In this document: piece after piece, positions 1-20,132 of the stretch
Layout: every line of letters begins with the position of its first letter
Position numbering within the stretch: position 1 is the first letter of the stretch
From: Escherichia phage JEP8
DNA: 64,000 nt
Reading direction: 5' to 3' (one strand)
Sequence record: MT764208.1
Made by a program: the position numbers and the translations under genes
The notes under the pieces: model-generated
The model's input: only the letters and a program-made list of their open reading frames with translations
Database searches by the model: none
Told to the model about the DNA's origin: nothing

Positions 1-208
1 TATTGTTAAAATTAGAAACATACTAATAACGCCGATCAGTGGAGTCGTCAAAACTACTGGTCCTACTTCATTTGGTGTTAATGGTGTTAGAACAACTCAT
101 ATTCAGGATAACGGTGATTTTACTAACCCTGTAATGAGTCTTCTTAAGCTGCCTAGAGACAATAAACATATCACATCCAACAACTTTAAAGAGTTCGATG
201 TTGATTAA
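1..208 (+). CDS. 3-prime fragment of a tail-fibre gene upstream of gp36 (possibly gp35-like); open frame from the window edge to TAA at 206-208
   Basis: Frame 2 is open from base 2 to the stop; position immediately upstream of the gp36-like gene; no start in window. Confidence 0.4.
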   Translation, partial: IVKIRNILITPISGVVKTTGPTSFGVNGVRTTHIQDNGDFTNPVMSLLKLPRDNKHITSNNFKEFDVD

Positions 209-370
209 CATTTTTTTACAAGCCGATCCATGTGGTCGGCTTTATTTTTATACAGTTGGTTAAAATGTAACCAAAACGAAGAAAGATCTTTAGAATAATA
301 GAAAATTTGTTTCGGTTAAAAATTAGTCAGTGCCTACGGCACGTCGCGAAGCGATATTTTGTTAACATTC

Positions 371-378
371 TATAAATA
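371..378 (+). promoter_or_regulatory. T4-type late promoter box TATAAATA
   Basis: Exact TATAAATA about 34 nt upstream of the gp36-like ATG, followed by GAGG Shine-Dalgarno. Confidence 0.55.
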
Positions 379-411
379 CTCGGAACTATAACTAATTTTT
401 GAGGTTACTTT

Positions 412-1902
412 ATGGCAGATTTGAAATATGGATCTACTGTAGGTGGATCTCCCATTTGGACGCAAGGAAACTTGACGATCCAGCCAGCAGGGGATCAGCT
501 TTTCTACAAAGGTCATAAAATCTATACCGCTTTTGATAGACCTTCGGCTACCGATTTTGATGCTGTTAGTGCATCCGAAGGTGGCACATTTCAAAAGCAA
601 GTTCATTTCGAGGAAGGTTTAAGCGTAGGTAGCGCATCGGCTGGAGAAACCAAAAAGAATGGTATCTTTAAAGGTCAGAGTGATGCTGCTAATTTTGACG
701 GTGTAAGCTGGGGTTTGCATTCATGGAAGTCAATAGGCTTTGTTAATGCCCGTGATGGCGTTATTATGGCGTATATTGACACCACAACGGGCGAATTTAA
801 GTCTAAAGGGACTATCGAAGGGACAACCATTAAAGACACAGGTCAACGCGTCTATAGCCCTGTTAATAAACCAACGAATAATGATTTAGATTTGGTGTCT
901 CGTCGCGGTGATACTCTCACAGGAACATATAATTTAAACACTGTCACTGTTAAACTATCGGTTGATTCTAAATTAATTGCAAGGGAACGTGATTTAATTA
1001 ATTTTGATGCGACTAAGATCTATTATGGTAACGTTCTTGATACGTTGGTCTTCCGAAGTAAAGATGAGCCTACCATTTTTGTTAATGGCAGAGAAGGTCG
1101 TTTTTATCACACCAATAATAAACCAACTAAAGCCGATGTTGGGCTAGGCAATGTCACCAATGATGCACAGGTTAAACGTGCTGGTGATATTATGGAAGGT
1201 AACTTGCAAGCGCCTAGAATGTTGGCGACAAACGATCCTGCTGGTCCGAATGAATTGGTTCGTTTGAGCTACTTTGAGAGAAAATCAATGGTAGCAAATC
1301 CAACCATCATTGGAAACGTTGATTGGAACACTCTTATTAATCGCGGTATCTATCGTGTGGAAAATGCTGGGTCGGGTACTAATAAACCGTCTGATAGCTA
1401 TTATAACGGCGTTTTGATGGTATATCGCCCAGAAGATGCGGTCGGTACTCGTCGAATTGTTCAGGTGTATTATCCTGAATCTATTGACCATCCGATGTGC
1501 TGGCGTTCTTGTTCTAATGAATCATGGACTGCATGGAACTATGTAGATCACCGTAAATTAGCCGATATTCGCTATGTTAACGTAACTGGCGATACCATGA
1601 CAGGACCGTTAACTGTTCCGGCTGCAAACGGTGTTAGAACGGCTAAAACTAACTATAACGGGGATAACTGTTATGCGGCGTTAAGCGGTGCTGATGGTAC
1701 TGCTATGATTCACCGCATTAGTGATATTAAAGGGACCGAAAAGCTGGGGATCACCCATGACTCAAAGGTCGTGTTTTTCCGTTCTAGAAACAATACTCAA
1801 ACCGTGGACCGCTATCAGCTTTATCATGAAGGTAATAAACCTACTCCGGCTGATGTTGGAGCGGTTCCACTTAATGCGGTGATTGATTTTGGTACTTTCT
1901 AA
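412..1902 (+). CDS. 36: long tail fibre protein gp36-like (496 aa, longer than T4 gp36)
   Basis: N-terminus MADLKYGSTVGGSPIW resembles recalled T4 gp36 MADLKVGSTTGGSVIW; sits directly before gp37. Confidence 0.7.
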   Translation: MADLKYGSTVGGSPIWTQGNLTIQPAGDQLFYKGHKIYTAFDRPSATDFDAVSASEGGTFQKQVHFEEGLSVGSASAGETKKNGIFKGQSDAANFDGVSWGLHSWKSIGFVNARDGVIMAYIDTTTGEFKSKGTIEGTTIKDTGQRVYSPVNKPTNNDLDLVSRRGDTLTGTYNLNTVTVKLSVDSKLIARERDLINFDATKIYYGNVLDTLVFRSKDEPTIFVNGREGRFYHTNNKPTKADVGLGNVTNDAQVKRAGDIMEGNLQAPRMLATNDPAGPNELVRLSYFERKSMVANPTIIGNVDWNTLINRGIYRVENAGSGTNKPSDSYYNGVLMVYRPEDAVGTRRIVQVYYPESIDHPMCWRSCSNESWTAWNYVDHRKLADIRYVNVTGDTMTGPLTVPAANGVRTAKTNYNGDNCYAALSGADGTAMIHRISDIKGTEKLGITHDSKVVFFRSRNNTQTVDRYQLYHEGNKPTPADVGAVPLNAVIDFGTF

Positions 1903-1907
1903 TTTTA

Positions 1908-1930
1908 GCGGGGATTATCTCCCCGCTTTT
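1908..1930 (+). terminator. GC hairpin GCGGGGA-TTATC-TCCCCGC plus T-run between genes 36 and 37 (partial terminator or processing site)
   Basis: Perfect 7 bp stem followed by TTTT. Confidence 0.4.
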
Positions 1931-1972
1931 CTAAATAATGTTATTCTAATAACCGTTTAAGGATTTTATAAA

Positions 1973-4741
1973 ATGGCAGATTTAAGCAGAATCCAATTTA
2001 AACGTACTAGCACTAAAGGCCGTCGACCTGATGCTGGTACGATGAATCCGGGGGAATTGGCAATCAACCTTGCGGATCAATATCTTCTTACTAAAAATGA
2101 TTCCGGTGCTATTATCAATTTAAGTTGTCCTCCGGTTTATGACCGCGATGTTACAATGGCAGGTAAGGTTAAAGGTAATAATTATATCTTAAGTAAAACC
2201 GCTAACTATCTGGAAGATCAGACAGCGCGAGATCTTAACTACTTTGGTGCTTTCCGTACCAATGGTCTTGATGGTTTTCTCGAACTCACGCTAAACGTTC
2301 CTCATTCTTCTGGTGTTCAGCATGGTCGAGGATTTACTTTCCAGTATGGACACACTGGATCGCGTGTAGAAACTTATGGCTATAATAAAGAAGGTCAAAA
2401 AGCATTTAGCTATAAAATGTATCATGAAGGTGATAAACCAACTCCAGGAGAATTGAACGTTTATAGCAAACAAGAAGTTGACCGTATGTTTGTTAAGAAC
2501 GTTAAACTTGCTACATCTCCTAGTGATATCGTTGAAGGCTATTTTAAATTAGCAACTGCAATGATTCCACAAAACGGTCTTAGCGTATTTTTCCGTATTC
2601 ATGGTGGTAACGGATATAACGTTACTGCATACGATCAAGTTGATATTGTAGAAATTGTTATTCGCAGTGGAAATGGTCGCCCTAAAGGTGTTAACGTTAT
2701 TGCATATCGCCGAAATACAAACAAATCATTTGATGTTTTGGCTGTTAATACTTCTGGTGATAACTATGATATCTATGTGAAATATCAGCGTTACACTGAT
2801 AACGTTATTGTTGAATTTGGTAAAAGTGTTGGTGTTAATCTGGTAGTTCATGACGTTCCAGATTTTGTTGCTGATCGTCCTGCTGGCGATAATGTTATTG
2901 GCGGTCGCGCGGTAACTCTTTTTAATACTGAAAATAAACGTGGTGTGTTAAGTTTTGATGATAACACACAAAACAGCTATGACATTGTTCACTTGAGTAA
3001 TGATAGGGGTACAGGACGAAAATATATTCGTAAATTCCGTAGCAACTATAATGAAATGATCTGGCATGAGACGGTTCAAGGTGCTACTTATCGTCTGGCT
3101 ACTGGTGCAACTGATGTTCAGGATATTCTAACCGTTGAATCTGTTAGCTCAATTTCTGGAACTCATAAAGGTAATATTACTTCTGGTCGTATGCTGTTAA
3201 ATGGTGGTAGTAATGTTATTACCTTGCGGCGTCCTGCTGGTCAATCCAACCATATTGCGTTTCAAGATAATCGTACTGGAGATATTACCCGTCAAGGATG
3301 GATCGGTTATGCCAATGCTAATACTAACGTTTTTGAATGGTATAGTGATGTAGGTGGCAGTTCTATTCGTCAACATATCGACGGACAGATCGAATTTCAG
3401 ACAGGTAGCATGAAGCGAGTTTATACTAACGGACAATTCATTTCATTATATGCCGATGGCTTCCGTACTGTATATGGTAACTATGGTTCATGGTGGCGAA
3501 ATGACGGTAGTAACGTTTATCTGATGAGCACAAAATCAGGCGACACTATGGGTCCGTGGAATACCTTTAGGCCGTTCATCTATAGCCTAGCCAATGGTAA
3601 CGTTACATTGGGGGGTAGTGATGCTGGCAACCATTTAATGCGTCTCAATAATGAAAGTAAACGAGTTGAAGTGAACGCAACCACACATCTTGGAAGCAGA
3701 CTGTATTGGGAACGTAACGACGAAGGATCGAAATCTGTATTCTTTGTTAAATCTTGGGGTAATGAAACTCGCGCTCAAGTGTGGGAACTTGCAGACGAAA
3801 CAAGCTATCATCTATATTCTCAGCGTGATTCTAACGGATCGATTCAATTTCGTGTTGCTGGTAGTTTGGAAACTGGAGGCCGCGCCCAGATTAATGGCGA
3901 TTTGGTCGTTACTAATGTTCTTCGTACAAATAACCAAATACAGATTTATAGAGATAACAACAAAGAGATCTGGTTTAAAGATGCTAATGGTACTAACCGT
4001 GGTGTTATCTGGGGAGATGGTGGCGGCAAAATGAGATTGCGTAACTATTCTGGTGGAGAATATGACCATGTGTTCGAAGCTGGTATGATTCGCCTTGAGC
4101 GTGGTTACGCCAATGGACAAGGTGCTGGGTTGATTCGCGGAGAAGTACAAGGTGGAGCATGGTCTGAATGGAGAACTCGCGCTGCTGGCTTATTGGTTGA
4201 CTGTCCAAATGCTCAAACTTCCGCATATAACGTATGGAAAGCGACCAAATGGGGTTTAGACCACATCGCGGCAATGGGTGTTCATGTTCCTAACGGTAAT
4301 GTTGGTAACTCTATTGCGCGTCTGCATGTTGGTGGCACTAACTTTGACTTTAACGCCTCCGGTGATTTCCAGGCAGGTCGTAACGGTAATTTTAACGATG
4401 TTTATATTCGCTCTGATGCTCGCCTTAAAATCAATAAGGAAGAGTATAAAGAGAATGCCACCGATAAAGTTAATCGCTTGACTGTGTACACCTACGATAA
4501 GGTTAAGTCTTTGACGGACCGCACTGTTATCGCTCATGAAGTTGGTATTATTGCTCAGGATCTTGAAAAAGAATTGCCGGAAGCAGTAACAACTTCTAAG
4601 ATCGGCGATCCTGATAAGCCAGAAGAGATCTTAACAATTTCTAACTCTGCTGTCAACGCTCTTTTAATTAAGGCGTTTCAGGAAATGAGCGAAGAATTGA
4701 AAGCCGTTAAAGCTGAACTAGCGGAACTTAAAAAGAATTAA
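1973..4741 (+). CDS. 37: long tail fibre distal subunit gp37 with C-terminal intramolecular chaperone (peptidase S74-type) domain
   Basis: N-terminus MADLSRIQFKRTSTKGRRPDAG..GELAINL resembles T4 gp37 MATLKQIQFKRSK..GELAINL; last 108 aa carry SDARLK..IAQDLEKELPEAV as in endosialidase/T5 fibre chaperone domains. Confidence 0.85.
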   Translation: MADLSRIQFKRTSTKGRRPDAGTMNPGELAINLADQYLLTKNDSGAIINLSCPPVYDRDVTMAGKVKGNNYILSKTANYLEDQTARDLNYFGAFRTNGLDGFLELTLNVPHSSGVQHGRGFTFQYGHTGSRVETYGYNKEGQKAFSYKMYHEGDKPTPGELNVYSKQEVDRMFVKNVKLATSPSDIVEGYFKLATAMIPQNGLSVFFRIHGGNGYNVTAYDQVDIVEIVIRSGNGRPKGVNVIAYRRNTNKSFDVLAVNTSGDNYDIYVKYQRYTDNVIVEFGKSVGVNLVVHDVPDFVADRPAGDNVIGGRAVTLFNTENKRGVLSFDDNTQNSYDIVHLSNDRGTGRKYIRKFRSNYNEMIWHETVQGATYRLATGATDVQDILTVESVSSISGTHKGNITSGRMLLNGGSNVITLRRPAGQSNHIAFQDNRTGDITRQGWIGYANANTNVFEWYSDVGGSSIRQHIDGQIEFQTGSMKRVYTNGQFISLYADGFRTVYGNYGSWWRNDGSNVYLMSTKSGDTMGPWNTFRPFIYSLANGNVTLGGSDAGNHLMRLNNESKRVEVNATTHLGSRLYWERNDEGSKSVFFVKSWGNETRAQVWELADETSYHLYSQRDSNGSIQFRVAGSLETGGRAQINGDLVVTNVLRTNNQIQIYRDNNKEIWFKDANGTNRGVIWGDGGGKMRLRNYSGGEYDHVFEAGMIRLERGYANGQGAGLIRGEVQGGAWSEWRTRAAGLLVDCPNAQTSAYNVWKATKWGLDHIAAMGVHVPNGNVGNSIARLHVGGTNFDFNASGDFQAGRNGNFNDVYIRSDARLKINKEEYKENATDKVNRLTVYTYDKVKSLTDRTVIAHEVGIIAQDLEKELPEAVTTSKIGDPDKPEEILTISNSAVNALLIKAFQEMSEELKAVKAELAELKKN

Positions 4742-4781
4742 GGAAACTCCCAGGGAAGGGAACTACTAAGGAGAAACGGCT

Positions 4782-5021
4782 ATGGTCTATAATATCGTCA
4801 TTGGCGCTTTGTCTAATTTCGGAATGAAATTATTGTCAAAGTTAATTAGTGAAAAGATGCTCACTAAAATTTTCTTCTATTGCGCTCGTCGTCTTGCGGC
4901 TTATACCAATACGCCAATTGATGATCGTTTTGTGGAAGAACTTTATAAGGAGTTTAATAAAGATCAGTCAGAAGATAGTAACGAGCAAGATAAATCTAGT
5001 GATAGTCAACTACCTAAATAA
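4782..5021 (+). CDS. small hypothetical protein (79 aa) between gp37 and holin
   Basis: AAGGAG Shine-Dalgarno 8 nt upstream of ATG; hydrophobic N-terminus, acidic C-terminus; no recognised homolog. Confidence 0.45.
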   Translation: MVYNIVIGALSNFGMKLLSKLISEKMLTKIFFYCARRLAAYTNTPIDDRFVEELYKEFNKDQSEDSNEQDKSSDSQLPK

Positions 5022-5054
5022 GAGTACACTGTCATAGTTATCTTAGGGCATTAT

Positions 5055-5711
5055 ATGCAAGTTTCTGAAAAAGGGAAAGACTTTGCTATCTCAAATGTCC
5101 TGCGCGCTATTTTCACAACTAAAAGCACGGAGTTGCTCGTACTTCGTGTTTTTGCTGCCGTCGTGTTGTCTATATTGGCATTTGTCGTTTATAGTAAAAA
5201 CGAGTTATTTGCGCTTTATAAAGAGACTCGTTATGAGACTTATGCTCACATTCTCCAGGTAGAGAAAGACCGCAATTTTGATAATGCAGCACAGGAGCAG
5301 TTACAGATAGTTCATGTGTCGGCTGATGCCGATTTTTCTGCTGTTTTTAGTTTTCGTCCGAAAAACCTAAACTATTTTGTTGATTTGGTGGCATATGAAG
5401 GAAAGCTACCACATACAATCGATGAAAAGAATTTAGGCGGATTCCCTATCAATAAAACGAGTGAAGAATATCGTAGACATCTTTTAGGTAAATCATATTT
5501 TACCGATAAAGATTTCCAGTATATTCCATCAAGAGAAAAGAAATTAGAGAATATCGATATAGGTTTCATGTATTCTTGTCCTATATTCAATCTCGATAAT
5601 GTCTATTCTGGTAGTATCGCCATTTCATGGAAGAATAAACCGGATATTGACATTGAGAATTTAGATACTCTTTGCAATCAATCTGCCAGAATCCTCGGAA
5701 GGATTAGATAA
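5055..5711 (+). CDS. t: holin t (218 aa)
   Basis: Same length as T4 holin; shared blocks EQLQIVH, SADADFSAV.SFRPKNLNYFVD, AYEGKLP, YSCPxFNLDN, ARILGR. Confidence 0.9.
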   Translation: MQVSEKGKDFAISNVLRAIFTTKSTELLVLRVFAAVVLSILAFVVYSKNELFALYKETRYETYAHILQVEKDRNFDNAAQEQLQIVHVSADADFSAVFSFRPKNLNYFVDLVAYEGKLPHTIDEKNLGGFPINKTSEEYRRHLLGKSYFTDKDFQYIPSREKKLENIDIGFMYSCPIFNLDNVYSGSIAISWKNKPDIDIENLDTLCNQSARILGRIR

Positions 5712-5716
5712 CTTAA

Positions 5717-5748
5717 AGGGGAAGCCTTTCGGCCTCCCCTTCTTTTTA
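5717..5748. terminator. bidirectional rho-independent terminator between convergent genes
   Basis: AGGGGAAGCC-TTTC-GGCCTCCCCT hairpin flanked by A-run and T-run. Confidence 0.55.
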
Positions 5749-5994
5749 TTGGCGCATAGACGCGCCTGAATCACATTTTGACGCTGTATGATGAAAACAG
5801 GTAGCGTACCAGTCATCGGCTTGTTTGTCTTCGTCAGAAAACGCGTAATTTCGTTGTACGCCGTTTTCTACTTTGACCAGTGCAATAGCTGTTTCTGGAA
5901 GATCAATCAATCGGACAAAATCACCATCTTCCCACTCTACACGAGCAATATCATAGCCCATCTCAAAGTATACAATCGCTTGTTCTAATTTCAT
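5746..5994 (-). CDS. hypothetical protein (82 aa)
   Basis: ORF track; first gene of the leftward cluster. Confidence 0.45.
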   Translation of the reverse strand: MKLEQAIVYFEMGYDIARVEWEDGDFVRLIDLPETAIALVKVENGVQRNYAFSDEDKQADDWYATCFHHTASKCDSGASMRQ

Positions 5995-6320
5995 TCTGGA
6001 AACTTCCCGTAAACATTCTCTGCCAACTTACGTGCATCTTTTACAATATCTTTCATGTAATGACTATAATTTTTAGCTAGATCAATGATGCAATCAACAA
6101 AGAAGTAATAGCGTCGCAGTGCGACCAGCTCAACATCTTCAAGATGACCATTTTCTCCAATCGCTGAAATATGTTTAAATTCCTTTCGGATCGCGTCCAT
6201 CGCTACATTAACTTCTTTTATAATATCTTTCGTATTATATGCACCTCGACTAATCAAAATTTTGGTTAGGTCTTCTGCTTTTTCGTGAAAGTTGTCAATT
6301 TCAAACTCGATCATAATCAC
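5991..6320 (-). CDS. hypothetical protein (109 aa), paralog of 6429-6761
   Basis: GAGGTGA Shine-Dalgarno; shares C-terminal ENxxGKF ending with the neighbour. Confidence 0.55.
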   Translation of the reverse strand: MIMIEFEIDNFHEKAEDLTKILISRGAYNTKDIIKEVNVAMDAIRKEFKHISAIGENGHLEDVELVALRRYYFFVDCIIDLAKNYSHYMKDIVKDARKLAENVYGKFPE

Positions 6321-6428
6321 CTCTCATAATTTCACGCTGTTGTTTCAACATTTTTTCGTGGTTTGCTAATTCTATACCTTGTAATAGCATAACCAGTGCA
6401 ATTTTCAATGATTCATCATCTTTCATAA

Positions 6429-6761
6429 TCAAAATTTACCGAAAATATTCTCTGTCATAATTCTTGCTTCGTCGATTATTTTCGTCATGTTCATGGTGTA
6501 GTTATGATCATTTAGTGCTTTAATAACAACGAGCAAGGAATCTAAAAACACTCGATACCGGGTATATTCTACGCTATTTGTGAATACCGATGTTTTCTCT
6601 ACTTTATCGATCAGATAGCCTAAAGCCGATAGCGCCTCGTTTACTTCCCGTGTTACTTTATCGGCGCTAAACAACACCGGATAAAGACGCGGTGTGATTA
6701 ACCGCGCTGCCTCTTTCAATTCGGTCGCTTTCCATGATTCATATTTGTCAAAATTAAACAT
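6429..6761 (-). CDS. hypothetical protein (110 aa), paralog of 5991-6320
   Basis: AAGGA Shine-Dalgarno; similar length and C-terminal motif. Confidence 0.55.
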   Translation of the reverse strand: MFNFDKYESWKATELKEAARLITPRLYPVLFSADKVTREVNEALSALGYLIDKVEKTSVFTNSVEYTRYRVFLDSLLVVIKALNDHNYTMNMTKIIDEARIMTENIFGKF

Positions 6762-6773
6762 TGTATAATGTCC

Positions 6774-7106
6774 TTACAGATGAAAACCTGTTACAATTAC
6801 CGCATCGATCATACCGCTAGGAATAAACGGTTCACCCTCTTTTATTTCAACTTTGAATTGATGCCATTTCGCCAATACTTCTTCCGGTACACCCAGCGAT
6901 TCGGCGTCTGCTTTAGTTTCATCCATAATCCAACTAGGCTGCATGAGAGCATAGTTTACATAGTCCATTTCTGGGGTCATGTCATCAATGTTAATATATT
7001 TGCAGTTGACGCGTTTCAGAATTTCAAATTCTTTATTGTCAACCTGTACCATGTATAATTCAGTAGTTTCTGGAATCACTTCCCACACAATCAGTACATT
7101 TTTCAT
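6774..7106 (-). CDS. hypothetical protein (110 aa)
   Basis: GAGGTGA Shine-Dalgarno before ATG. Confidence 0.55.
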   Translation of the reverse strand: MKNVLIVWEVIPETTELYMVQVDNKEFEILKRVNCKYINIDDMTPEMDYVNYALMQPSWIMDETKADAESLGVPEEVLAKWHQFKVEIKEGEPFIPSGMIDAVIVTGFHL

Positions 7107-7114
7107 AGTTCACC

Positions 7115-7483
7115 TCACTTAACAAAGATTTTCTTTAATGCTTTCAGGATCGTTGCTTCCGGCGCTTCTTCCGGTGGAGGAAGCAATTCTACCACTTCCT
7201 CTTCCAACTCGATATAGTCTACCAGATATTCTACATAGAATGCAAGTGCTTCCATGAAATTAGATGCTACATCCGATTCGCCACACGCGCCCACATGCAT
7301 TGTATAAACATCACTGCGATCAAGTTTGTGGATGCTTCCCAGATAGTTTCGGTTATACCAGACTTCCCACACTTTCAGCTTTCCGGTTTTGGTTGATGTT
7401 TTATAATCGGTTTCGTAATGATGCAATTGACGTTGCAGATCATTGATAATAACACATTTTTCGTAATTGTTTTGAATTTCCAT
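7115..7483 (-). CDS. hypothetical protein (122 aa)
   Basis: GAGGA Shine-Dalgarno before ATG. Confidence 0.55.
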   Translation of the reverse strand: MEIQNNYEKCVIINDLQRQLHHYETDYKTSTKTGKLKVWEVWYNRNYLGSIHKLDRSDVYTMHVGACGESDVASNFMEALAFYVEYLVDYIELEEEVVELLPPPEEAPEATILKALKKIFVK

Positions 7484-7493
7484 GATGTAATCC

Positions 7494-7685
7494 TCACTTA
7501 TCGTTAAGAAGTTCTAAAACTTTCTGTCGTACTTTGTCAATATTAGTTGATTCAAAAACTGTACGGTATCCCCAGCTTTGACCGTATGAGCGGTTGCAAT
7601 CTCCATATCCCCATTGTTCAACCTGATAGTATTCAAGGAATGGGTGCTGCCGAACTATGATACCATCGCGATTAAAAATTACCAT
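7494..7685 (-). CDS. hypothetical protein (63 aa)
   Basis: GAGGA Shine-Dalgarno before ATG. Confidence 0.5.
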   Translation of the reverse strand: MVIFNRDGIIVRQHPFLEYYQVEQWGYGDCNRSYGQSWGYRTVFESTNIDKVRQKVLELLNDK

Positions 7686-7708
7686 AATATAATCCTCACG
7701 TCAACAAC

Positions 7709-7996
7709 TTATTTTCGGTTGTGGTCACGATATGTTTTAAAATATCCCTCGTACCACGGTAAAACATCTGGATTTTTACCACTATACAGACCTTTAACCA
7801 TCATGTCAATAAGGCCATCCGGTGTTTGATAGTTTCCAGCTTTTATAAGCTCTCTGATTAAAATCTCTCTGTATATGTCTTTCGGATCTTCGTAATCAAC
7901 TTGTATTGTGGTTGTGGTCTCATTCAATTTGGTTTCTGGAGTATCTCGCATTGCATCCCACCAATCTTTTGTGACCTTCATGTTATTGAATTGCAT
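7709..7996 (-). CDS. hypothetical protein (95 aa)
   Basis: AGAGGT Shine-Dalgarno before ATG. Confidence 0.5.
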   Translation of the reverse strand: MQFNNMKVTKDWWDAMRDTPETKLNETTTTIQVDYEDPKDIYREILIRELIKAGNYQTPDGLIDMMVKGLYSGKNPDVLPWYEGYFKTYRDHNRK

Positions 7997-8007
7997 AATT
8001 TAACCTC

Positions 8008-8766
8008 TTACTTGCAAACGTATTGGTCTACATCAATTGCTCCACCGAATGTAGGATGACGTTTTTCAAATCGAATAGTTCCGTCGTTTGGTTCGAAAAC
8101 GGAGTATTCATATAGATCTTTCTTGCCAACATTCTTATAAAACCCGCCTTTAGTCATAACGGTTTCTTGTACGTTTGCTTTGTGTACGTTGTATTCATCA
8201 ATGTATACAAAATCAACCATCTTCCCATTTTTAATTGTTACTTTAAGATCACCCGGTTGATTTCCATATTTGGCATACAGTGGCGCTTCTTTAATTTTTG
8301 TGGAAATTCCATCTTTCATACTCCACTCATAACGAACGGTGCATTGATAGGTAAAAGTTTCGACCTTCGGTTCTTCTACCACTTTTGCTTCCTGTTTCTG
8401 TTGTTCTTCTTCAACCTTTGCAGAAGTCTCTGAATCGCTTTCTGACGAGGTTTCTTCTTTAGGTAATACATTCATCAAGTTTTGGATTTGAGCGTTATAT
8501 ACAGCCTCCAGTGGCTGAATCTGCCCGATATTGATCATTGTATCACGAACAGTTTTATTCCAGTTTCGTTGCTCTTGTTTCAGAGACGGATCAATCTTAA
8601 CAGCCTTAACATACACTTCATGAAGTTTAGAGTCCAGTGCGGAGATAGACTCATTAGCACAAATAAACTTCTCTGATTTGGTAGTAGCTTTAGCGCAATC
8701 AAAGGACGCAGCATTAGCACCGAAAGCAGTAGCGGAAAGAACGATAGCAGCGATAATGTTTTTCAT
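8008..8766 (-). CDS. secreted protein with LprI/DUF1311-like (lysozyme-inhibitor-like) N-terminal domain
   Basis: Signal peptide MKNIIAAIVLSATAFGANA then SFDCAKATT..EKFICANESISALDSKLHEVY..QRNW, the two-Cys DUF1311 pattern. Confidence 0.6.
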   Translation of the reverse strand: MKNIIAAIVLSATAFGANAASFDCAKATTKSEKFICANESISALDSKLHEVYVKAVKIDPSLKQEQRNWNKTVRDTMINIGQIQPLEAVYNAQIQNLMNVLPKEETSSESDSETSAKVEEEQQKQEAKVVEEPKVETFTYQCTVRYEWSMKDGISTKIKEAPLYAKYGNQPGDLKVTIKNGKMVDFVYIDEYNVHKANVQETVMTKGGFYKNVGKKDLYEYSVFEPNDGTIRFEKRHPTFGGAIDVDQYVCK

Positions 8767-8800
8767 AATATATTCCTCAATGTTTTGTCTTGATGGGAGT

Positions 8801-8830
8801 ATCTTACTACTCCCTTAATCCTGTGTCAAC
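8801..8830 (-). promoter_or_regulatory. sigma70-like early promoter (-35 GTTGACA, 17 nt spacer, -10 TAAGAT) with GGGAGTA/TACTCCC palindrome flanking the -10
   Basis: Read on - strand; drives 8008-8766. Confidence 0.45.
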
Positions 8831-8836
8831 TAATTT

Positions 8837-8992
8837 TTAAATTTCTTCTACAGTAAAGTCTTCAATGTTGTTGTGCTCGGCGAACGTTGCCAGACCAGCA
8901 TTCCATGCATCATCCTCAGAGAAGAATACACCGTAACGTTCATATCCTTTAGCGCCTTCAAATTTAACCATTAATTTGTGAGTATGTTTCAT
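8837..8992 (-). CDS. hypothetical protein (51 aa)
   Basis: Trimmed to ATG after AGGAG; the ORF-track extension runs through the promoter. Confidence 0.45.
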   Translation of the reverse strand: MKHTHKLMVKFEGAKGYERYGVFFSEDDAWNAGLATFAEHNNIEDFTVEEI

Positions 8993-9022
8993 TTTGATTC
9001 TCCTTCGTTGTCTTGATGAGTT

Positions 9023-9052
9023 TAGTATAGGGGATCGCCGATCCCCTGTCAA
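9023..9052 (-). promoter_or_regulatory. sigma70-like early promoter (-35 GTTGACA, -10 TATACT); spacer is the palindrome GGGGATCGGCGATCCCC with two GATC sites
   Basis: Exact 17 nt spacing; near-identical cassettes at about 49.5 kb and 59.2 kb. Confidence 0.5.
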
Positions 9053-9061
9053 CAACTATTT

Positions 9062-9274
9062 TTAATTTTTACCCGCTCGTGCATTAATACGCATTTTCTG
9101 CATAGCCATGATCTGGCTTACTGCTTCTTCTTTACGTTTTTGCGTGATAACGTGACCAGATTCCGCAAACTCTCCCGCAACTTCTTCTACAATCTCGCGA
9201 ACTTGAGAACGTCCAAAGATGCGGTTTCCTTCGTAGCTCATAAATTCAGTCACTACTTGCTCAATAGATTTCAT
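9062..9274 (-). CDS. hypothetical protein (70 aa)
   Basis: Trimmed to ATG after AGGAGA. Confidence 0.5.
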   Translation of the reverse strand: MKSIEQVVTEFMSYEGNRIFGRSQVREIVEEVAGEFAESGHVITQKRKEEAVSQIMAMQKMRINARAGKN

Positions 9275-9303
9275 GTGATTCTCCTTTCGTTTGGTATGGG
9301 AGT

Positions 9304-9332
9304 ATAATACTACTCCCATTTCTTTACGTCAA
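9304..9332 (-). promoter_or_regulatory. sigma70-like early promoter (-35 GTTGACG, -10 TATTAT inside GGGAGTA..TACTCCC palindrome)
   Basis: 17 nt spacer. Confidence 0.45.
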
Positions 9333-9335
9333 CAA

Positions 9336-9497
9336 CTATTTTAAATTATTTTCGACCTTCACCCATTCCGCGTATTCTTGCGCGGCTACTTTCGGATTTA
9401 AGCCGTCTTCGTACATTGCATCAAGTAATTCTTTGTCGGTGGGCTTATACCCTAGATAAGCCTCCACCTGATTTTTCCAAATTTTATACCAGTTCAT
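9336..9497 (-). CDS. hypothetical protein (53 aa)
   Basis: Trimmed to ATG after GGTGA. Confidence 0.4.
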   Translation of the reverse strand: MNWYKIWKNQVEAYLGYKPTDKELLDAMYEDGLNPKVAAQEYAEWVKVENNLK

Positions 9498-9501
9498 ATT
9501 A

Positions 9502-9774
9502 TCACCAATCAAGAGCGCGTGTCTCTGCGTCTTCCCATGCTTGATCCATAACAGCCTTGAAAACATATTCTAGAGTATCATCTTTAGAGAATCCGAAGAC
9601 TTTAGACGGAATATCTTCGATTGCTACTCCCGCAACTTCTGCATTACGCGCTTGGCAATAATGCAACTCTAAGTTATCGAGATAGCGACCGCCTAATTTC
9701 TCCATATCATCCCAGCATTTCCAGTAACCTACTTTATCTGCAATTGCCAACACTTTGCTGTTTTCGTTGCACAT
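9502..9774 (-). CDS. hypothetical protein (90 aa)
   Basis: Trimmed to ATG after AAGGAG. Confidence 0.5.
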   Translation of the reverse strand: MCNENSKVLAIADKVGYWKCWDDMEKLGGRYLDNLELHYCQARNAEVAGVAIEDIPSKVFGFSKDDTLEYVFKAVMDQAWEDAETRALDW

Positions 9775-9805
9775 CTTTGATTCTCCTTTTGTTTGGTATG
9801 TGTGT

Positions 9806-9834
9806 ATTATGCAATGTTGGATTCTGTAAGTCAA
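9806..9834 (-). promoter_or_regulatory. sigma70-like early promoter (-35 TTGACT, -10 CATAAT)
   Basis: 17 nt spacer; the TGTGTATTATGCA-type -10 region recurs at 23.7, 61.3 and 62.4 kb. Confidence 0.45.
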
Positions 9835-9884
9835 CAACTTTTTAAAATAAAAAAGCCGACCACAAGGATCGGCTTAATAATCAG

Positions 9885-10280
9885 TTACTTACTAAATTTC
9901 TTTTTGGCTTCGTCTACCGCATGAGATGCCAGTACCGCAGCCGCATGTGCACTTTTATCTGTGTTGCAGAGAACGCCCAGATAAACATCACGCCAAAGTT
10001 TAATCATCTCGTAGATCATATCAATATCATTTTCTTGTTTGTTGGCGATGCTATTCGTCGTTATCTGGTAAGGTAACGGCTTGATCTGTACTGGTTCCGC
10101 CATCGGGCTAATCGGCTTCGGATCAGTCATAATAGGTGCTGTTGTGGGTGGTGTTTTCCATACGCCATTATTCCACGGTTTAATCGTTGTATCGTAAAGT
10201 TTATAAGGATTTTTGTCTGGGTCAACCATCCAGGCATGATGAGTACCCAAACCATTTGAAGTAATGCGTCGTTCAGTCAT
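9885..10280 (-). CDS. hypothetical protein (131 aa), proline-rich middle
   Basis: GGAGGG Shine-Dalgarno. Confidence 0.5.
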   Translation of the reverse strand: MTERRITSNGLGTHHAWMVDPDKNPYKLYDTTIKPWNNGVWKTPPTTAPIMTDPKPISPMAEPVQIKPLPYQITTNSIANKQENDIDMIYEMIKLWRDVYLGVLCNTDKSAHAAAVLASHAVDEAKKKFSK

Positions 10281-10482
10281 ACTTTCCCTCCAAAAATTCT
10301 TTCATCAAATAGTCTATCGTTGCTCTGTGTTCTGGTGTGTTTGTGATCTCTGCTAACTTATTCAGAGATTCAATAGTGATCCGGTTGGCTTCTTCCATAG
10401 TCTCAACGACCATTGGCGCAATCTTTTTATTGTTGTACACGAAAGCCACATAACCGCCTTCTGGATATTCTTTCATAATCAA
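10273..10482 (-). CDS. hypothetical protein (69 aa)
   Basis: ORF track; overlaps the gp52 stop. Confidence 0.45.
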   Translation of the reverse strand: MIMKEYPEGGYVAFVYNNKKIAPMVVETMEEANRITIESLNKLAEITNTPEHRATIDYLMKEFLEGKYD

Positions 10483-11843
10483 CCCTTCTTAAGTTCTTTA
10501 AGATCTTTCTTATATTCCTTCATTGCGGTCGTCTTTGTCCAATACTCATATTCACTATGATGTTTATCGGCATCTTTGACCAGTCGACCATACTCTTCTT
10601 GAGTAACGCTATACAATGGCATAGAAACTAGCTTATCGGCGTATGGACGCAGTTTTTCATGTCCATTGATGGATTGCATTACCTCGGCCTTTTTCTTGCC
10701 CTGTAGCTCGATTTCGCCCTTAATTACGCGATCGATAAATTCGGCTTTAGCCATTGCATAATTGTATGCTTCCAGTGTTTCCGCTTGCATCAATTCAATG
10801 CGTTTATCTACATAGCCTAATCGGATTTCGACGAATCGACGGATCAGATCGCTCGCTTTTTCGAATACTTCTACTAAACCACGTTCGTTAACTACTACGA
10901 TATTCTGGGCTACTAACTGCGTTAGTTTAAAATCCTTCATGATTTGCTCATGTCGAGCGGATTCATCTTCGCTTTTGAAATAATCGCGTTTCAGTGTTAC
11001 TTCAAATCTGAATCCGTCCTTAGAGCAACGGTCATTATACGATACAATCAGATCTTTTTCTTCCAGTGCATCCAGTACCGCTACATATTCTTCACGGTCG
11101 AACTTATAAGGAACTTCTGATATTGTCAGTTTAGTCTTGCCGTTTAGTTCATATGTACCCTCAAGAATCACACCATCGCGATCATCTCGCGGGATAACTT
11201 TACCCTTGAATTTCGGGAATTGAACACTAGGTTCTTTATCCAGTTTTCCGGCAAGTGCTAGCTCTGTGCATTCAATAAGGCTTTCCAGTGAATGCGGTAA
11301 AATGTCAGTTTTATACCCTGTAGCAATACCACTAATACCATTAGCTAGTACCATTGGCACAACTGGCAAGTAGAACGCTGGCGGGATGTGTTCCAGATCT
11401 TCGTGCTTAGGTGCGCAATTCATATCTTTATAGATTTTAAAGAAGTTTTCATGCACACGAGCAAAGATATAACGTGCCGCACCTGCTTTCTGGACTAAAC
11501 GCGATCCGAAGTTACCTTGACCGTCAAGCAGTGGAGTATTATTGCTCCATGTATTCGCCATGAGTGATCCGGCTTCTACGGCATTAGTTTCCCCGTGGTG
11601 ATAACCCAACTCAGCAACACCAGATCCAATATCTGCCATCTTACGGAATTTCTTACGGTCGCCTTTACTCTTTTGAAGTGCGCACTCCATAACAAAGCGT
11701 TGCACTGGTTTAAGCCCATCCACTAATTGAGGAATCCCGCGTTCCTCGGCAGAATAGATCGCATATTCCTTAGCTTCATTATGTACAATGCTTTCAAGGC
11801 TGCGGTAAGTAAATGTGTTTACAATTTGACTAATTTTATCCAT
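10479..11843 (-). CDS. 52: DNA topoisomerase II medium subunit gp52 (GyrA-like)
   Basis: KPVQRFV, LGYHHGE, MANTWSNN.PLLDGQGNFGSR, AARYIFARV, HIPPAFYLP blocks match recalled T4 gp52; start set at ATG after GAGGTGAAG. Confidence 0.9.
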   Translation of the reverse strand: MDKISQIVNTFTYRSLESIVHNEAKEYAIYSAEERGIPQLVDGLKPVQRFVMECALQKSKGDRKKFRKMADIGSGVAELGYHHGETNAVEAGSLMANTWSNNTPLLDGQGNFGSRLVQKAGAARYIFARVHENFFKIYKDMNCAPKHEDLEHIPPAFYLPVVPMVLANGISGIATGYKTDILPHSLESLIECTELALAGKLDKEPSVQFPKFKGKVIPRDDRDGVILEGTYELNGKTKLTISEVPYKFDREEYVAVLDALEEKDLIVSYNDRCSKDGFRFEVTLKRDYFKSEDESARHEQIMKDFKLTQLVAQNIVVVNERGLVEVFEKASDLIRRFVEIRLGYVDKRIELMQAETLEAYNYAMAKAEFIDRVIKGEIELQGKKKAEVMQSINGHEKLRPYADKLVSMPLYSVTQEEYGRLVKDADKHHSEYEYWTKTTAMKEYKKDLKELKKG

Positions 11844-11850
11844 CTTCACC

Positions 11851-12213
11851 TCATACACGCTTACAAATCACATTCTTTACTTTATCAGATTTATCAGCCC
11901 AATCCAATAGCCATTTTAACGGAAGGATTGAAACAATAAACGGGGCAGCAATCAAAGCAAACATGATACACCTGATAATCAGGAAAACGCAAGTGACAAA
12001 ACTAGCGATAGTGATCCCGACAAAACAAAATACCATAGAAAACAGAGTAATGATATAGAAAGGCCAGAATACCCACTCCCGCATCTTAACTCCTTTGTAT
12101 TCTCTGAATTGCTTAAAATCTACAAACAACTCTCGGATAGACGCGTACAGGACCGAAAAATCATCTTTCATTGCTCTGAATGAGCAATCTTCTATTTTAG
12201 AATGACCTAGCAT
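11851..12213 (-). CDS. hypothetical membrane protein (120 aa)
   Basis: Long hydrophobic stretches; AAGGCGG Shine-Dalgarno. Confidence 0.5.
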   Translation of the reverse strand: MLGHSKIEDCSFRAMKDDFSVLYASIRELFVDFKQFREYKGVKMREWVFWPFYIITLFSMVFCFVGITIASFVTCVFLIIRCIMFALIAAPFIVSILPLKWLLDWADKSDKVKNVICKRV

Positions 12214-12215
12214 TA

Positions 12216-12509
12216 TTAACCGCCTTTAACCATTGATACAGGAATTGTTTTCTGATTTGTGTATAATTGGCCTACTTCAATTTTTTCTTGAATCACCACG
12301 ACGTTACAATATCCACTGTCTTTAAGTTTTCTGATAATGACTCGCTTTTGTTCGTCGGTGATAGGATTGACTGTTCTCACCAATTCACCGCAAATAATAG
12401 CACCATCTTTACAATTGCCAGTAACTTTCATGCTACGACCGTGAACAACAACCACATCACCGTAAATCACATTTTCGTCGTCGTATTTGGTAATAACCGT
12501 GACTGTCAT
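12216..12509 (-). CDS. hypothetical protein (97 aa)
   Basis: AGAGGGA Shine-Dalgarno. Confidence 0.5.
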   Translation of the reverse strand: MTVTVITKYDDENVIYGDVVVVHGRSMKVTGNCKDGAIICGELVRTVNPITDEQKRVIIRKLKDSGYCNVVVIQEKIEVGQLYTNQKTIPVSMVKGG

Positions 12510-12528
12510 AATGTATTCCCTCTAAGAA

Positions 12529-12547
12529 AGGCCGCTTTGCGCGGCCT
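12529..12547 (-). terminator. hairpin AGGCCGC-TTTGC-GCGGCCT followed by T-run on the - strand
   Basis: Perfect 7 bp stem. Confidence 0.4.
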
Positions 12548-12554
12548 ATGTTGA

Positions 12555-12881
12555 TTATTGTTCTACAGTATAACCGTTGTTTTCAAGCCATGCAATAACA
12601 ATCTTTTCGCCAATTTCATCGAGCATTTCATCAGCGCCGTATTCTTTAATGAAAGTCGATGGATCATTATTGCTTACTACGTGCTGGATCACAACATGTT
12701 CAGGAATTGCGTCTAGCAGTTCGCTATGATCATACTCATTAACGATATCTTCAACACTAACATTATTAACCAAATCAACATCATCCATAGTCACAGTAAC
12801 GCGACCGGACGGACGCAATGAATATTGGCTACTTTCAACTTCAACATGTGCACTTTCGCAAGTAACTTTCATATCAATCAT
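12555..12881 (-). CDS. hypothetical acidic protein (108 aa)
   Basis: GAGGA Shine-Dalgarno. Confidence 0.5.
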   Translation of the reverse strand: MIDMKVTCESAHVEVESSQYSLRPSGRVTVTMDDVDLVNNVSVEDIVNEYDHSELLDAIPEHVVIQHVVSNNDPSTFIKEYGADEMLDEIGEKIVIAWLENNGYTVEQ

Positions 12882-12895
12882 AATTAATTCCTCTG

Positions 12896-13888
12896 TTAGT
12901 AATGGCTAAACCCTTCGGTCACATCTTCAACCACATAGTAACGATGACAGCGCATTTTGGCATTCGCATAATCTTTCGGGATACTTACAACGTGACGCGG
13001 ATCAACTTTACATTTAATGATTCGGCCTCGTCCACCGCCATAGTGCGGAATATAGTGTTTCGCTGCAACGTGGAGGCCATTAGAGCAAGTGCGATCATCA
13101 TCCGGGTCCACGTCTTTACGCTTCATTTTAACCGTGCGACCTGGGCTATTATCAAACGTATGCGTAAAGAAATCTTTATAATCAACATCAACACGTTTCC
13201 ATGCATAGAAACAACCATCTTCCACGATCTCAATGTCGTTGTGCTCTAAGAAGTCAAACAGACGATCTACGGCCTTACGGCTAGGGTTTTTCTTGCACTT
13301 CTCAAAGAAGTTCAGATAGTGCGTATATGGCTTATTCTCTTTAATCGACTCCACAACTCGACGAGTCAGATTATTATCAAGAACAATATTATGATAATAC
13401 ACAATACCATTTTCGATACGGAAAGCGCCGTGATAATATACTTCAACCGCTTTCTTAATGTCAATCAGCGTAATAGCTTTGATGAAATCATTATGTTTAA
13501 TCGCTTCCAGTGCTTCATTAAAGTTAACATGCGACGGATCAGCAGTATAAACAATGTCACCACATGTAATAGTAATAAACTTAGTTGAGGCTATTGCTAC
13601 GATTTTTGAGGAAGTAGTCACGGGCTTTTTTGCGCGTTCACCGCCTTTTCCTTTACTGGTTTTACGGCGTGCTTTACGTTTTTCTAGTGCCTTGCGACCT
13701 TCCGCTACTGCGTCTTTCTGAATCAGTAATACACGGGAGGCAGTACGACGAGATACCCCAAATGCTGCCGCAAGTGCTTCGCGGGTAGTAAACTTACCTT
13801 CGCCCCACTGTTTAGCCAGTTTGATTTGTTTTTCAGAATCCAGGCATTGAACGTTACGGTCAGAGACGGTGATTTTTGCTTTAGTCAT
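12896..13888 (-). CDS. rIIB: rIIB protein
   Basis: C-terminal blocks PSRKAVDRLFDFL..DIEI.EDG.FYAWK, TFDN.PG..VKM, CS.GLHV, HPR.VVSIP.DY.DAKMR, YYVVEDVTE match recalled T4 rIIB. Confidence 0.85.
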   Translation of the reverse strand: MTKAKITVSDRNVQCLDSEKQIKLAKQWGEGKFTTREALAAAFGVSRRTASRVLLIQKDAVAEGRKALEKRKARRKTSKGKGGERAKKPVTTSSKIVAIASTKFITITCGDIVYTADPSHVNFNEALEAIKHNDFIKAITLIDIKKAVEVYYHGAFRIENGIVYYHNIVLDNNLTRRVVESIKENKPYTHYLNFFEKCKKNPSRKAVDRLFDFLEHNDIEIVEDGCFYAWKRVDVDYKDFFTHTFDNSPGRTVKMKRKDVDPDDDRTCSNGLHVAAKHYIPHYGGGRGRIIKCKVDPRHVVSIPKDYANAKMRCHRYYVVEDVTEGFSHY

Positions 13889-13950
13889 AGTATTCATTCC
13901 TCTATTAGTTGGGCGACTATCGCCGCCCGATTCACATCATTATACCAGAA

Positions 13951-14082
13951 TTATTTTGCTTCTACAACCTTGCGGATTGTGCGGTCTGATACATTATAGA
14001 TTCGTGCCAGTTCGCCTTTAGTCAAGCCGCGAGCGTATTGTTTACGGATGGTTTCTTTCTGGATAGCGGTCAGTTTAGTCAT
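13951..14082 (-). CDS. small helix-turn-helix protein (43 aa) between rIIA and rIIB
   Basis: AGAGGTGA Shine-Dalgarno; MTKLTAIQKETIRKQYARGLTKGELARIYNVSDRTIRKVVEAK; below the 60 aa ORF-track cutoff. Confidence 0.45.
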   Translation of the reverse strand: MTKLTAIQKETIRKQYARGLTKGELARIYNVSDRTIRKVVEAK

Positions 14083-14093
14083 AATATCACCTC

Positions 14094-16202: not shown

Positions 16203-16216
16203 AATATAATCCTCAC

Positions 16217-16474
16217 TTAATTAAAATCTTCTTTGTCCATCTCTGCGTAGATTACATCCCACGCCCATAAATCAATAAACGCATTATATGTCACGGTGCA
16301 ATCGTTGTCAATCACTTCTTTCGCATATTTCTTGATGTTTTCGTAGGCAACTTGCGGATCAATTTTGTGTTTACGAAGGTGTGCATATTCATACCTCAAA
16401 CATTTCATAAACAGGTCCATCGATTTCTTTTCTCGATGACACTTGGCGATCAGAAAATCAAAACTTCGACTCAT
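16217..16474 (-). CDS. hypothetical protein (85 aa)
   Basis: AAGGAG Shine-Dalgarno. Confidence 0.5.
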   Translation of the reverse strand: MSRSFDFLIAKCHREKKSMDLFMKCLRYEYAHLRKHKIDPQVAYENIKKYAKEVIDNDCTVTYNAFIDLWAWDVIYAEMDKEDFN

Positions 16475-16484
16475 TTTCTACTCC

Positions 16485-16679
16485 TTATACATTTTCAATC
16501 ACCCATTGCAGATGGGCTTCTGCGTCAACCAATTCAGCGCGGCTTTTCTCTAAGCACTTGCTGTATTCTTTACGTTCCCAATCAGCAATTTCGTTTTTCA
16601 GGACTTCTTCATAGTAAGCAATTACGCCTTTCAGGTCTGAAACTTTACGGCTTGCCAATTCGATGTAATGGTTACGCAT
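16485..16679 (-). CDS. hypothetical protein (64 aa)
   Basis: AAGGAGA Shine-Dalgarno. Confidence 0.5.
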   Translation of the reverse strand: MRNHYIELASRKVSDLKGVIAYYEEVLKNEIADWERKEYSKCLEKSRAELVDAEAHLQWVIENV

Positions 16680-16870
16680 TTTGATTCTCCTTTGTTACTA
16701 GATAACGAATTTGGTCTTGCATTGCGATCAGTTCCCAGCGTGCTACTTTCATCATGGAAACCGACTCTTTGAACATAATATTAGCTTTTTCCTTATTCCC
16801 TGTCAAGTAGATTTCTGCAATTTTTCACAAAATTTTTGAGTTTCTTCATTCTTAAACGGTTTCATATAAG

Positions 16871-17230: not shown

Positions 17231-17264
17231 TATTAAATCCTCATAAAAGAAAAGGGAGACTCCC

Positions 17265-17292
17265 ATTATAGAGAATCTCCCTTGTATGTCAA
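17265..17292 (-). promoter_or_regulatory. sigma70-like early promoter (-35 TTGACA, -10 TATAAT) followed by GGGAGACTCCC hairpin and T-run
   Basis: Immediately after the gp39 stop; the hairpin lies at the predicted transcript 5-prime end. Confidence 0.5.
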
Positions 17293-17295
17293 GTG

Positions 17296-19119: not shown

Positions 19120-19125
19120 ATTATA

Positions 19126-20131: not shown

Positions 20132-20132
20132 A

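Follow-up and report, generated by a model that had tools for sequence, protein, structure and literature searches.

The Peptidase S74 family was founded on the chaperone domains of the K1F endosialidase and the GA-1 neck appendage (3GW6 and 3GUD, respectively), which sit on tailspikes or appendages whose head domains are enzymatic or of other kinds, and not on a T-even long tail fibre. For the distal subunit of the latter, gp37, a self-cleaving C-terminal chaperone has already been published in RB49, and the arrangement is common among T-even-like phages, of which it is the majority type (PMC9569957). In S16 the intramolecular chaperone of gp37 is autocleaved before a conserved Ser (DLNVS^SDRRIKK, where the caret marks the cut), which exposes a docking site for a single gp38, and for gp37 of the fPS phages the cut is predicted at DVYIR^SDGRLKI (PMC7917993). 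The T5 fibre protein pb1 likewise bears a C-terminal S74 chaperone, cut between Thr1263 and Ser1264 so that the Ser departs with the chaperone (PMC4690869). T4 gp37 holds the same position in the distal half-fibre, but ends in an extended receptor-binding tip without an S74 domain, and T4 gp38 is an unrelated assembly chaperone; an earlier note on the present DNA was right in stating that T4 gp37 needs gp57A and gp38 as chaperones (PMC3157838; PMC12032242). In most T-even-type phages gene 38 adjoins gene 37, and in RB49 g38 is found at a distant locus (PMC3157838).

Here we describe gp37 from Escherichia phage JEP8, a Krischvirus (RB49-like) coliphage, using a window of 64,000 nt (the whole stretch of DNA analysed, from record MT764208.1). 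Its counterparts in RB49 and other Krischvirus phages (GEC-3S, JK32, Phi1) are the same gene in the same genus, with gp38 likewise displaced. Since this arrangement has been reported in RB49 and prevails among T-even-like phages, no new biology is involved, and the value of the analysis lies chiefly in correct annotation and engineering.

The gene 36 and 37 region

The genes of the distal half-fibre and the features around them are as follows.

371..378, plus strand: TATAAATA, match to the T4-type late-promoter consensus, shortly before gene 36
412..1902, plus strand: homologue of gene 36 (496 aa), coding for the attachment partner of gp37 in the fibre (PHROG 16472 and 1425; gene 36 in Phi1)
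1973..4741, plus strand, stop codon included: gene 37, long tail fibre distal subunit precursor, 922 aa, 102.5 kDa
3275..3583, plus strand: Gp34_trimer-like domain in the gp37 shaft, aa 435-537 (Pfam PF21446, E 7.5e-24)

The product of gene 37 matches PHROG 1699, 'long tail fiber protein distal subunit' (E 6e-179), in agreement with the annotation of the same ORF as gene 37 in relatives. Its shaft gave PDB matches to T4 gp34 (4UXE, 5NXF), whose domains those of JEP8 resemble, and to the phage Mu fibre protein S (5YVQ). The needle/tip of T4 gp37 was not matched by gp37 in the PDB sequence search; the S74 domain stands there instead. The late-promoter consensus of T4 is well established, and its exact match TATAAATA occurs only once in the 64,000-nt window, at 371..378 on the plus strand, where it is likely to drive late transcription of genes 36 and 37.

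gp37 ends in an S74 chaperone domain

The C-terminal part of gp37 (...NGNFNDVYIRSDARLKINKEEYKENATDKVNRLTVYTYDKVKSLTDRTVIAHEVGIIAQDLEKELPEAV...) contains all of the motifs that the earlier note had quoted from the ORF at 1973..4741, and its main elements are listed below.

4412..4738, plus strand: intramolecular chaperone domain, aa 814-922 (Ser814-Asn922), 109 aa, 12.2 kDa, pI 5.1 (Pfam S74, model and fold matches)
4412..4414, plus strand: Ser814 codon (TCT), predicted to be the nucleophile and to head the released chaperone (aligned to position 1 of the Pfam profile for S74)
4427..4429, plus strand: Lys819 codon (AAA), predicted general base, five residues past Ser814 (conservation and T5 pb1 spacing)
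4643..4735, plus strand: C-terminal helix of the chaperone, aa 891-921, presumed trimeric coiled coil (helix in the monomer model; T5 pb1 counterpart)

The Pfam search that the note had named as a check placed Peptidase_S74 (PF13884) on aa 814-873 with an E-value of 1.3e-11 and 45.1 bits, covering profile positions 1-58 of 58. The domain extends to the last residue of gp37, that is, to the extreme C-terminus of the fibre protein. That gp37 ends in an S74 chaperone, as the note had proposed, is thus borne out by the Pfam profile, the catalytic residues, the alignment to solved members and the predicted fold. The start given for the domain, 4415, does lie within it, but this is the codon after Ser814, and the domain begins at 4412.

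In an alignment of 20 homologues, which are short, mostly partial proteins (<300 aa) and therefore tell little about full-length architectures, Lys819 is invariant (K60 of the alignment), while Ser814 and each residue of the preceding V-Y-I-R are conserved in at least 90%, giving the shared motif NDVYIRSDxRLK. The spacing of five residues between Ser814 and Lys819 equals that of Ser1264 and Lys1269 in T5 pb1. The residue at which the GA-1 chaperone chain 3GUD starts (SDERHK, compared with SDARLK in gp37) aligns with Ser814, and the two chaperones share the start motif SD-x-R-x-K; also aligned with Ser814 is the second Ser of DLNVS^SD in S16, the P1' residue. In T5, an Arg/Asp pair of the neighbouring chain (Arg1250/Asp1239) acts as a 'folding sensor' and makes up the oxyanion hole, and the Arg sensor has also been described for K1F. 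In JEP8 gp37, Arg803 and Asp798 lie upstream of Ser814, and Arg803 is not conserved as read from the alignment of the 20 homologues.

Sequence searches of the PDB with the last 149 aa of gp37 returned S16 gp37 as the sole significant match (E 8e-5; MyRF, E 1.3). A profile built from the 20 sequences recovered S16 gp37 (6F45_A) at an E-value of 6e-11 and the MyRF ICA (7DC3) at 0.0017, with GA-1 3GUD non-significant at 0.27. The sequence that precedes the chaperone aligns to the trimeric tip of S16 gp37. Neither T5 pb1 nor K1F was matched in the PDB by the 149-aa query or by the 20-sequence profile, and the sequence identity between the T5 and JEP8 chaperones is low. Using tblastn, the same S74 module was found in 931 phage records, mostly annotated as fibre proteins among the matches listed, with T5-like L-shaped fibres present among the matches.

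We also analysed an AlphaFold model of the gp37 C-terminus (163 residues, monomer), which had a mean pLDDT of 80 for the whole model and values above 82 in the chaperone. Its secondary structure (H70-76, E79-85/E93-100, H102-108, E113-120/E123-130, H132-162) forms, in the chaperone, two beta-hairpins and a long C-terminal helix (model residues 132-162, pLDDT ~82-94). The top 11 PDB fold matches obtained with Foldseek are all intramolecular chaperone domains, namely 7DC3 (E 6e-5), followed by 3GUD and 3GW6, so that both GA-1 and K1F are reached via the fold (Foldseek probability 0.84-1.0). The C-terminal helix, which has its counterpart in the terminal coiled-coil helix of the hairpin-rich T5 pb1 chaperone (PMC4690869), is presumed to form a trimeric coiled coil.

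Predicted cleavage and the displaced gene 38

Three further features bear on how the fibre end would be processed and capped.

1973..4411, plus strand: predicted mature gp37, aa 1-813, 90.3 kDa (from the S16/T5 cleavage position, with Ser814 aligned to their P1' Ser)
4397..4411, plus strand: DVYIR, aa 809-813, predicted mature fibre end and proposed gp38 docking tip (same DVYIR in fPS-phage gp37; PMC7917993)
61347..62126, minus strand: gene 38, T2/T6/S16-type tail-fibre adhesin, 259 aa, 23% Gly (Pfam and PDB matches)

The gp37 site, DVYIR^SDARLKI, can be set against DVYIR^SDGRLKI of the fPS phages and DLNVS^SDRRIKK of S16, from which it differs at P1 (Arg in JEP8, Ser in S16). From these relatives we infer autoproteolysis of gp37, its exact bond and the chaperone role of the released domain, and predict a cut between Arg813 and Ser814 (DVYIR813^S814). 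The products would be a mature fibre protein of 813 aa (90.3 kDa) and a fragment of 109 aa (12.2 kDa). The earlier note had put the cut after Ser814; since S16 and T5 cut before the conserved Ser, the mature protein is predicted to have 813 residues, not 814. In terms of annotation, virion gp37 is expected to fall about 12 kDa short of the full gene product. No experiment showing cleavage of a Krischvirus gp37 emerged from a literature search, virion proteomics included.

Gene 38 is present in the window, 56.6 kb from gene 37 and on the opposite strand, not directly downstream, and this displaced position is repeated in GEC-3S. Its product matches the Pfam families GP38 (E 5e-73) and Gp38_N (E 2e-17) and, in the PDB, chain D of 6F45, S16 gp38 (E 9e-50), as expected of an adhesin that has an N-terminal attachment domain followed by a glycine-rich domain for receptor binding; both JEP8 partners match the two chains of the S16 gp37-gp38 tip. 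Of the three Trp prongs in the attachment domain of S16 gp38, two have Trp counterparts in JEP8 (W7 and W20), whereas the third (in RPFWISS) aligns with Tyr35 (in RPAYMSA). A search for a late promoter of the displaced gene found no exact TATAAATA on the gene 38 strand.

The wording of the note implies that the S74 domain substitutes for gp38 and gp57A. This implication does not hold, given the gp38 gene in the window and the 57A encoded by Phi1. On the basis of the Phi1 annotation, gp57A probably still assists fibre folding in this phage, and gp38 most likely caps the cleaved gp37 tip.

The usual gene 38 slot after gene 37 is occupied by an ORF of 79 aa. We considered it as a chaperone tied to the S74 module and rejected a specific link to that module: its Felixounavirus homologue follows a tail-fibre gene without an S74 domain.

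Proposed fibre maturation, alternatives and shaft variation

Considering the S16 system together with the features above, we propose that the S74 chaperone makes up the final 109 residues of a 922-aa gp37 precursor. On the model of K1F endosialidase, T5 pb1 and S16 gp37, the C-terminal helices would bring three chaperone domains together, and the beta-hairpins of these domains would seed the trimeric beta-helical fibre end and set its register. In a correctly folded trimer, Lys819 would activate Ser814 and the Arg813-Ser814 bond would be cut. The departure of the 12.2-kDa domain would then expose a flat tip ending in DVYIR813, on which one copy of gp38 may dock via its N-terminal attachment domain and provide receptor recognition. 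We assign this reading, self-cleavage at Arg813-Ser814 followed by capping with gp38, a probability of roughly 0.85.

The main alternative accepts the cleavage but lets the trimmed gp37 tip bind the receptor itself, with no gp38 cap, as in T5 pb1, where removal of the chaperone directly unmasks the receptor site (PMC4690869). The comparison with T4 in the earlier note points to such a fibre. The separation of gene 38 from gene 37, with the 79-aa ORF in its place, would suit such a fibre, and so would the high variability of gp37 just upstream of the tip, as is often seen in host-range determinants. The tip itself, however, is conserved and not variable, and its final DVYIR matches the gp38 docking strand proposed earlier (PMC7917993). 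Moreover, RB49 fibres are described as carrying gp38, and the host-range mutations of that phage map to it (E230K, Y231S; PMC9569957). We consequently consider direct binding by the gp37 tip quite unlikely and expect JEP8, in contrast to T5, to use a separate adhesin as cap.

Still less probable is a domain kept in the virion as a structural C-terminal knob, an auto-chaperone that does not cleave, such as has been suggested for the C-terminal fin of the P22 tailspike. Non-cleaved auto-chaperone regions are known in other fibres (P22 is discussed in PMC4690869), but in gp37 both catalytic residues are conserved, all characterised family members with the Ser/Lys dyad cleave themselves (PMC4690869; PMC7917993), and the docking surface for gp38 would be hidden if the domain stayed in place. 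That the S74 match reflects a chance or degenerate resemblance without chaperone function, for instance of the C-terminal coiled coil only, has a practically negligible probability. A profile of 58 positions is short and calls for general caution; nevertheless, the score is about twice the gathering cut-off of 22 over the full profile, the independent fold evidence agrees with S74, and the module recurs in the phage records found by tblastn. Under the preferred reading of cleavage and gp38 capping, host range is likely determined by the distant gene 38 and not by the C-terminus of gp37, and any fibre swap needs to leave both the DVYIR tip and the chaperone module unaltered.

The shaft upstream of this module differs sharply between relatives.

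3530..4372, plus strand: variable distal shaft, ~aa 520-800 (low identity to Phi1 gp37)

Gene 37 is 91% identical in DNA to that of GEC-3S over its full length, and many Krischvirus records match it as two pieces only. Compared with Phi1 gp37, identity is 82-100% over aa 1-500, 30-65% over ~aa 520-800 and 95-100% over aa 800-922, which comprise the tip and the chaperone. The distal shaft is thus a different allele from that of Phi1 and RB49, and the protein has 922 aa here versus 980 aa there. A conserved tip and chaperone downstream of a divergent shaft fits a conserved docking and folding module. The distal shaft might additionally form a second, lateral receptor-binding module beside the gp38 cap, for example for O-antigen; this idea, which we regard as unlikely, was prompted by the occurrence of sharply different shaft alleles within the genus, between a conserved N-terminal half and the conserved tip and chaperone. 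If true, two receptor-binding sites might explain the use of both O-antigen and OmpA by RB49-like phages.

Chaperone domain at the end of gp37

The precursor of the distal subunit of the long tail fibre (gp37) ends in a Peptidase_S74 (S74) intramolecular chaperone domain, residues 814-922, as five independent lines of evidence agree: Pfam, conservation, structure profiles, a fold model and phage records. The features concerned are:

1973..4741, +, gene 37 in the ORF list, 922-aa product
4412-4414, +, codon of Ser814
4427-4429, +, codon of Lys819
412..1902, +, gene 36 homologue, 496 aa
3275..3583, +, Gp34_trimer domain in the gp37 shaft, E 7.5e-24
about 4130..4370, +, gp37 shaft segment with homology to fibres of other phages

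The product matches PHROG 1699 ('long tail fiber protein distal subunit') at E 6e-179, and gene 37 is 91% identical over its full length to that of Krischvirus GEC-3S, JK32 and Ec_Makalu_002. Since the gene order (36, 37, a small ORF, holin t) also matches Phi1, the window is that of an RB49-like ('pseudo-T-even') coliphage.

The motifs from which the earlier note had read an autoproteolytic S74 domain are all present in the translated C-terminus (...NGNFNDVYIRSDARLKINKEEYKENATDKVNRLTVYTYDKVKSLTDRTVIAHEVGIIAQDLEKELPEAV...AELAELKKN), and Pfam Peptidase_S74 (PF13884, 'chaperone of endosialidase') matches residues 814-873 across all 58 profile positions (E 1.3e-11, 45.1 bits; gathering score 22). 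When 19 homologues from the database, almost every one with PF13884, were aligned with gp37, the motif NDVYIRSDxRLK was prominent, Lys819 was invariant, and Val810, Tyr811, Ile812, Arg813, Ser814 and Asp815 were each conserved to at least 90%. Searched against solved structures, the profile of gp37 homologues matched Salmonella phage S16 gp37 (6F45_A, E 6e-11), the tail fibre in 8JOV and the MyRF ICA domain (7DC3, E 0.0017); the GA-1 neck-appendage chaperone (3GUD) fell below significance (E 0.27), and in this non-significant alignment its chain start, SDERHK, pairs exactly with SDARLK of gp37. An AlphaFold2 model of residues 760-922 (mean pLDDT 80, mostly 82-94 in the chaperone) has a pair of beta-hairpins and, at the C-terminus, a helix of 31 residues, and the best 11 PDB fold matches found by Foldseek were all intramolecular chaperone domains, led by MyRF ICA (E 6e-5), then GA-1 3GUD and K1F 3GW6. 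The module was seen in 931 phage records, including many Tequatrovirus gp37, T5-like L-shaped fibres, KVP40, Aeromonas phages and streptococcal PblB proteins. It is an ordinary feature, previously described for the RB49-like group.

Identity to Phi1 gp37 is 82-100% over residues 1-500, 30-65% over 520-800 and 95-100% over 800-922, and many Krischvirus records match gene 37 in two pieces only. The gene 38 allele is closest to those of GoldenSnicker and Sf20 (98-99%) but only 77% of the length of Sf20 gene 37 is matched, in two pieces; it thus seems that shaft and adhesin are exchanged independently of each other, in keeping with a docking tip and chaperone that are strictly conserved. A single non-trivial reading is left, and it has a low probability: the variable shaft may act as a second receptor-binding module. 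Segments homologous to T4 gp34 (4UXE, 5NXF) and phage Mu tail fibre protein S (5YVQ) were observed in the shaft and illustrate fibre-module mosaicism. The gene 36 homologue is about twice as long as T4 gp36, matches Phage_T4_gp36 below threshold (21.4 bits, cut-off 26), and resembles the N-termini of several distal-fibre-subunit PHROG families in its first 40-80 residues.

Predicted position of the cleavage and proposed maturation of the fibre

The earlier note placed the cut after Ser814 and its domain start, 4415, is the first codon past that serine. Characterised relatives cut before the conserved Ser: T5 pb1 is cleaved at Thr1263-Ser1264, the Ser departing with the chaperone, and likewise in K1F, while the phi29 model alone put it on the mature side, in weak density (PMC4690869). 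The S16 gp37 site is DLNVS^SDRRIKK, whose second Ser of DLNVS^SD aligns with Ser814, and the site predicted for fPS phages, DVYIR^SDGRLKI (PMC7917993), is nearly identical to DVYIR-SDARLKI here. Arg813^Ser814 is thus the best prediction for the scissile bond; mature gp37 would then have 813 aa (90.3 kDa), and 109 aa (12.2 kDa, pI 5.1) would be released. The expected loss of about 12 kDa stands; the S74 observation is confirmed and, with this one-residue correction, its interpretation is supported. That gp37 cleaves itself is what we infer by analogy with these relatives; our literature search found no Krischvirus virion proteomics.

Established here are the S74 domain at the very end of the protein, its catalytic dyad and predicted fold, the conservation of the DVYIR tip, and the presence of a gp38 gene. 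As in K1F, T5 and S16, three chaperone domains would join through their C-terminal helices, and their hairpins would template the trimeric fibre end. A correct trimer would bring Ser814 beside Lys819, the Arg813-Ser814 bond would be cut and the chaperone would leave, whereupon one gp38 could dock on the bared tip by its N-terminal helical bundle.

The gp38 adhesin and gp57A

T4 gp37 folds with gp57A and the gp38 chaperone (PMC3157838; PMC12032242), as the earlier note held; its suggestion that the S74 domain takes their place did not stand. In T2, T6, S16 and most T-even-like phages the gp37 C-terminus is proteolytically processed and a gp38 adhesin then caps it (PMC3157838), T4 being the exception, and in RB49 the mutations that alter host range lie in gp38 (PMC9569957). 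Gene 38 and the expression signals examined are:

61347..62126, -, gene 38, 259 aa, 23% glycine
62139..62162, -, terminator-like GC hairpin and T-run directly before the gene 38 ribosome-binding site
371..378, +, late-promoter consensus TATAAATA, just upstream of gene 36

The gene 38 product matches Pfam GP38 (E 5e-73), Gp38_N (E 2e-17) and S16 gp38 (6F45 chain D, E 9e-50), and keeps two of the three S16 Trp prongs (W7, W20), with Tyr35 at the third position, a small difference. A distance of 56.6 kb separates gene 38 from gene 37, and GEC-3S has its gene 38 at the corresponding place. The related Phi1 keeps 57A, annotated 'tail fiber chaperone', and by synteny 57A should lie outside the window. 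Because gp38 is encoded here and 57A in Phi1, the S74 domain is no substitute for the other proteins of fibre assembly but one part of the standard T2/S16-type route. An important addition to the earlier note is that gp38 most likely caps the fibre, with gp57A probably retained. The exact T4-type late-promoter consensus occurs once in 64 kb against 5.9 expected, with none on the gene 38 strand of the window for the displaced gene.

Other features of the window

4782..5021, + (also L003 3492..3686), 79-aa ORF, PHROG 402, unknown function
31410..35202, -, split gene 43 DNA polymerase region
33994..35202, -, exonuclease-domain ORF of gene 43
31410..32816, -, polymerase-domain ORF of gene 43
33027..33887, -, 285-aa ORF between the gene 43 halves, no Pfam match
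8008..8766, -, LprI-domain protein, 252 aa, predicted signal peptide (MKNIIAAIVLSATAFGANAAS...)
29277..30053, -, ORF with I-TevI-type DNA-binding domain, 258 aa, E 1.1e-6, among minus-strand ORFs

No tRNA genes, and no Rfam families at gathering score, were found within 1..64000. The 79-aa ORF, which had no Pfam match, takes the usual place of gene 38, flanked by gene 37 and holin t; homologues occur in 387 phage records, one lying directly downstream of a tail-fibre gene without an S74 domain in Felixounavirus VpaE1, and one overlapping a 'putative holin' annotation in an Erwinia phage. The gene 43 insertion was found in 11 Krischvirus records, some labelled HNH or NUMOD3 endonuclease, and is 100% identical in phage ELT4; RB49 and many others lack it. 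It therefore resembles a polymorphic insertion of the homing-endonuclease type. The 29277..30053 ORF is probably a free-standing homing endonuclease. The N-terminus of the 252-aa protein matches the LprI lysozyme-inhibitor domain (E 7.7e-6, 26.7 bits, cut-off 22).
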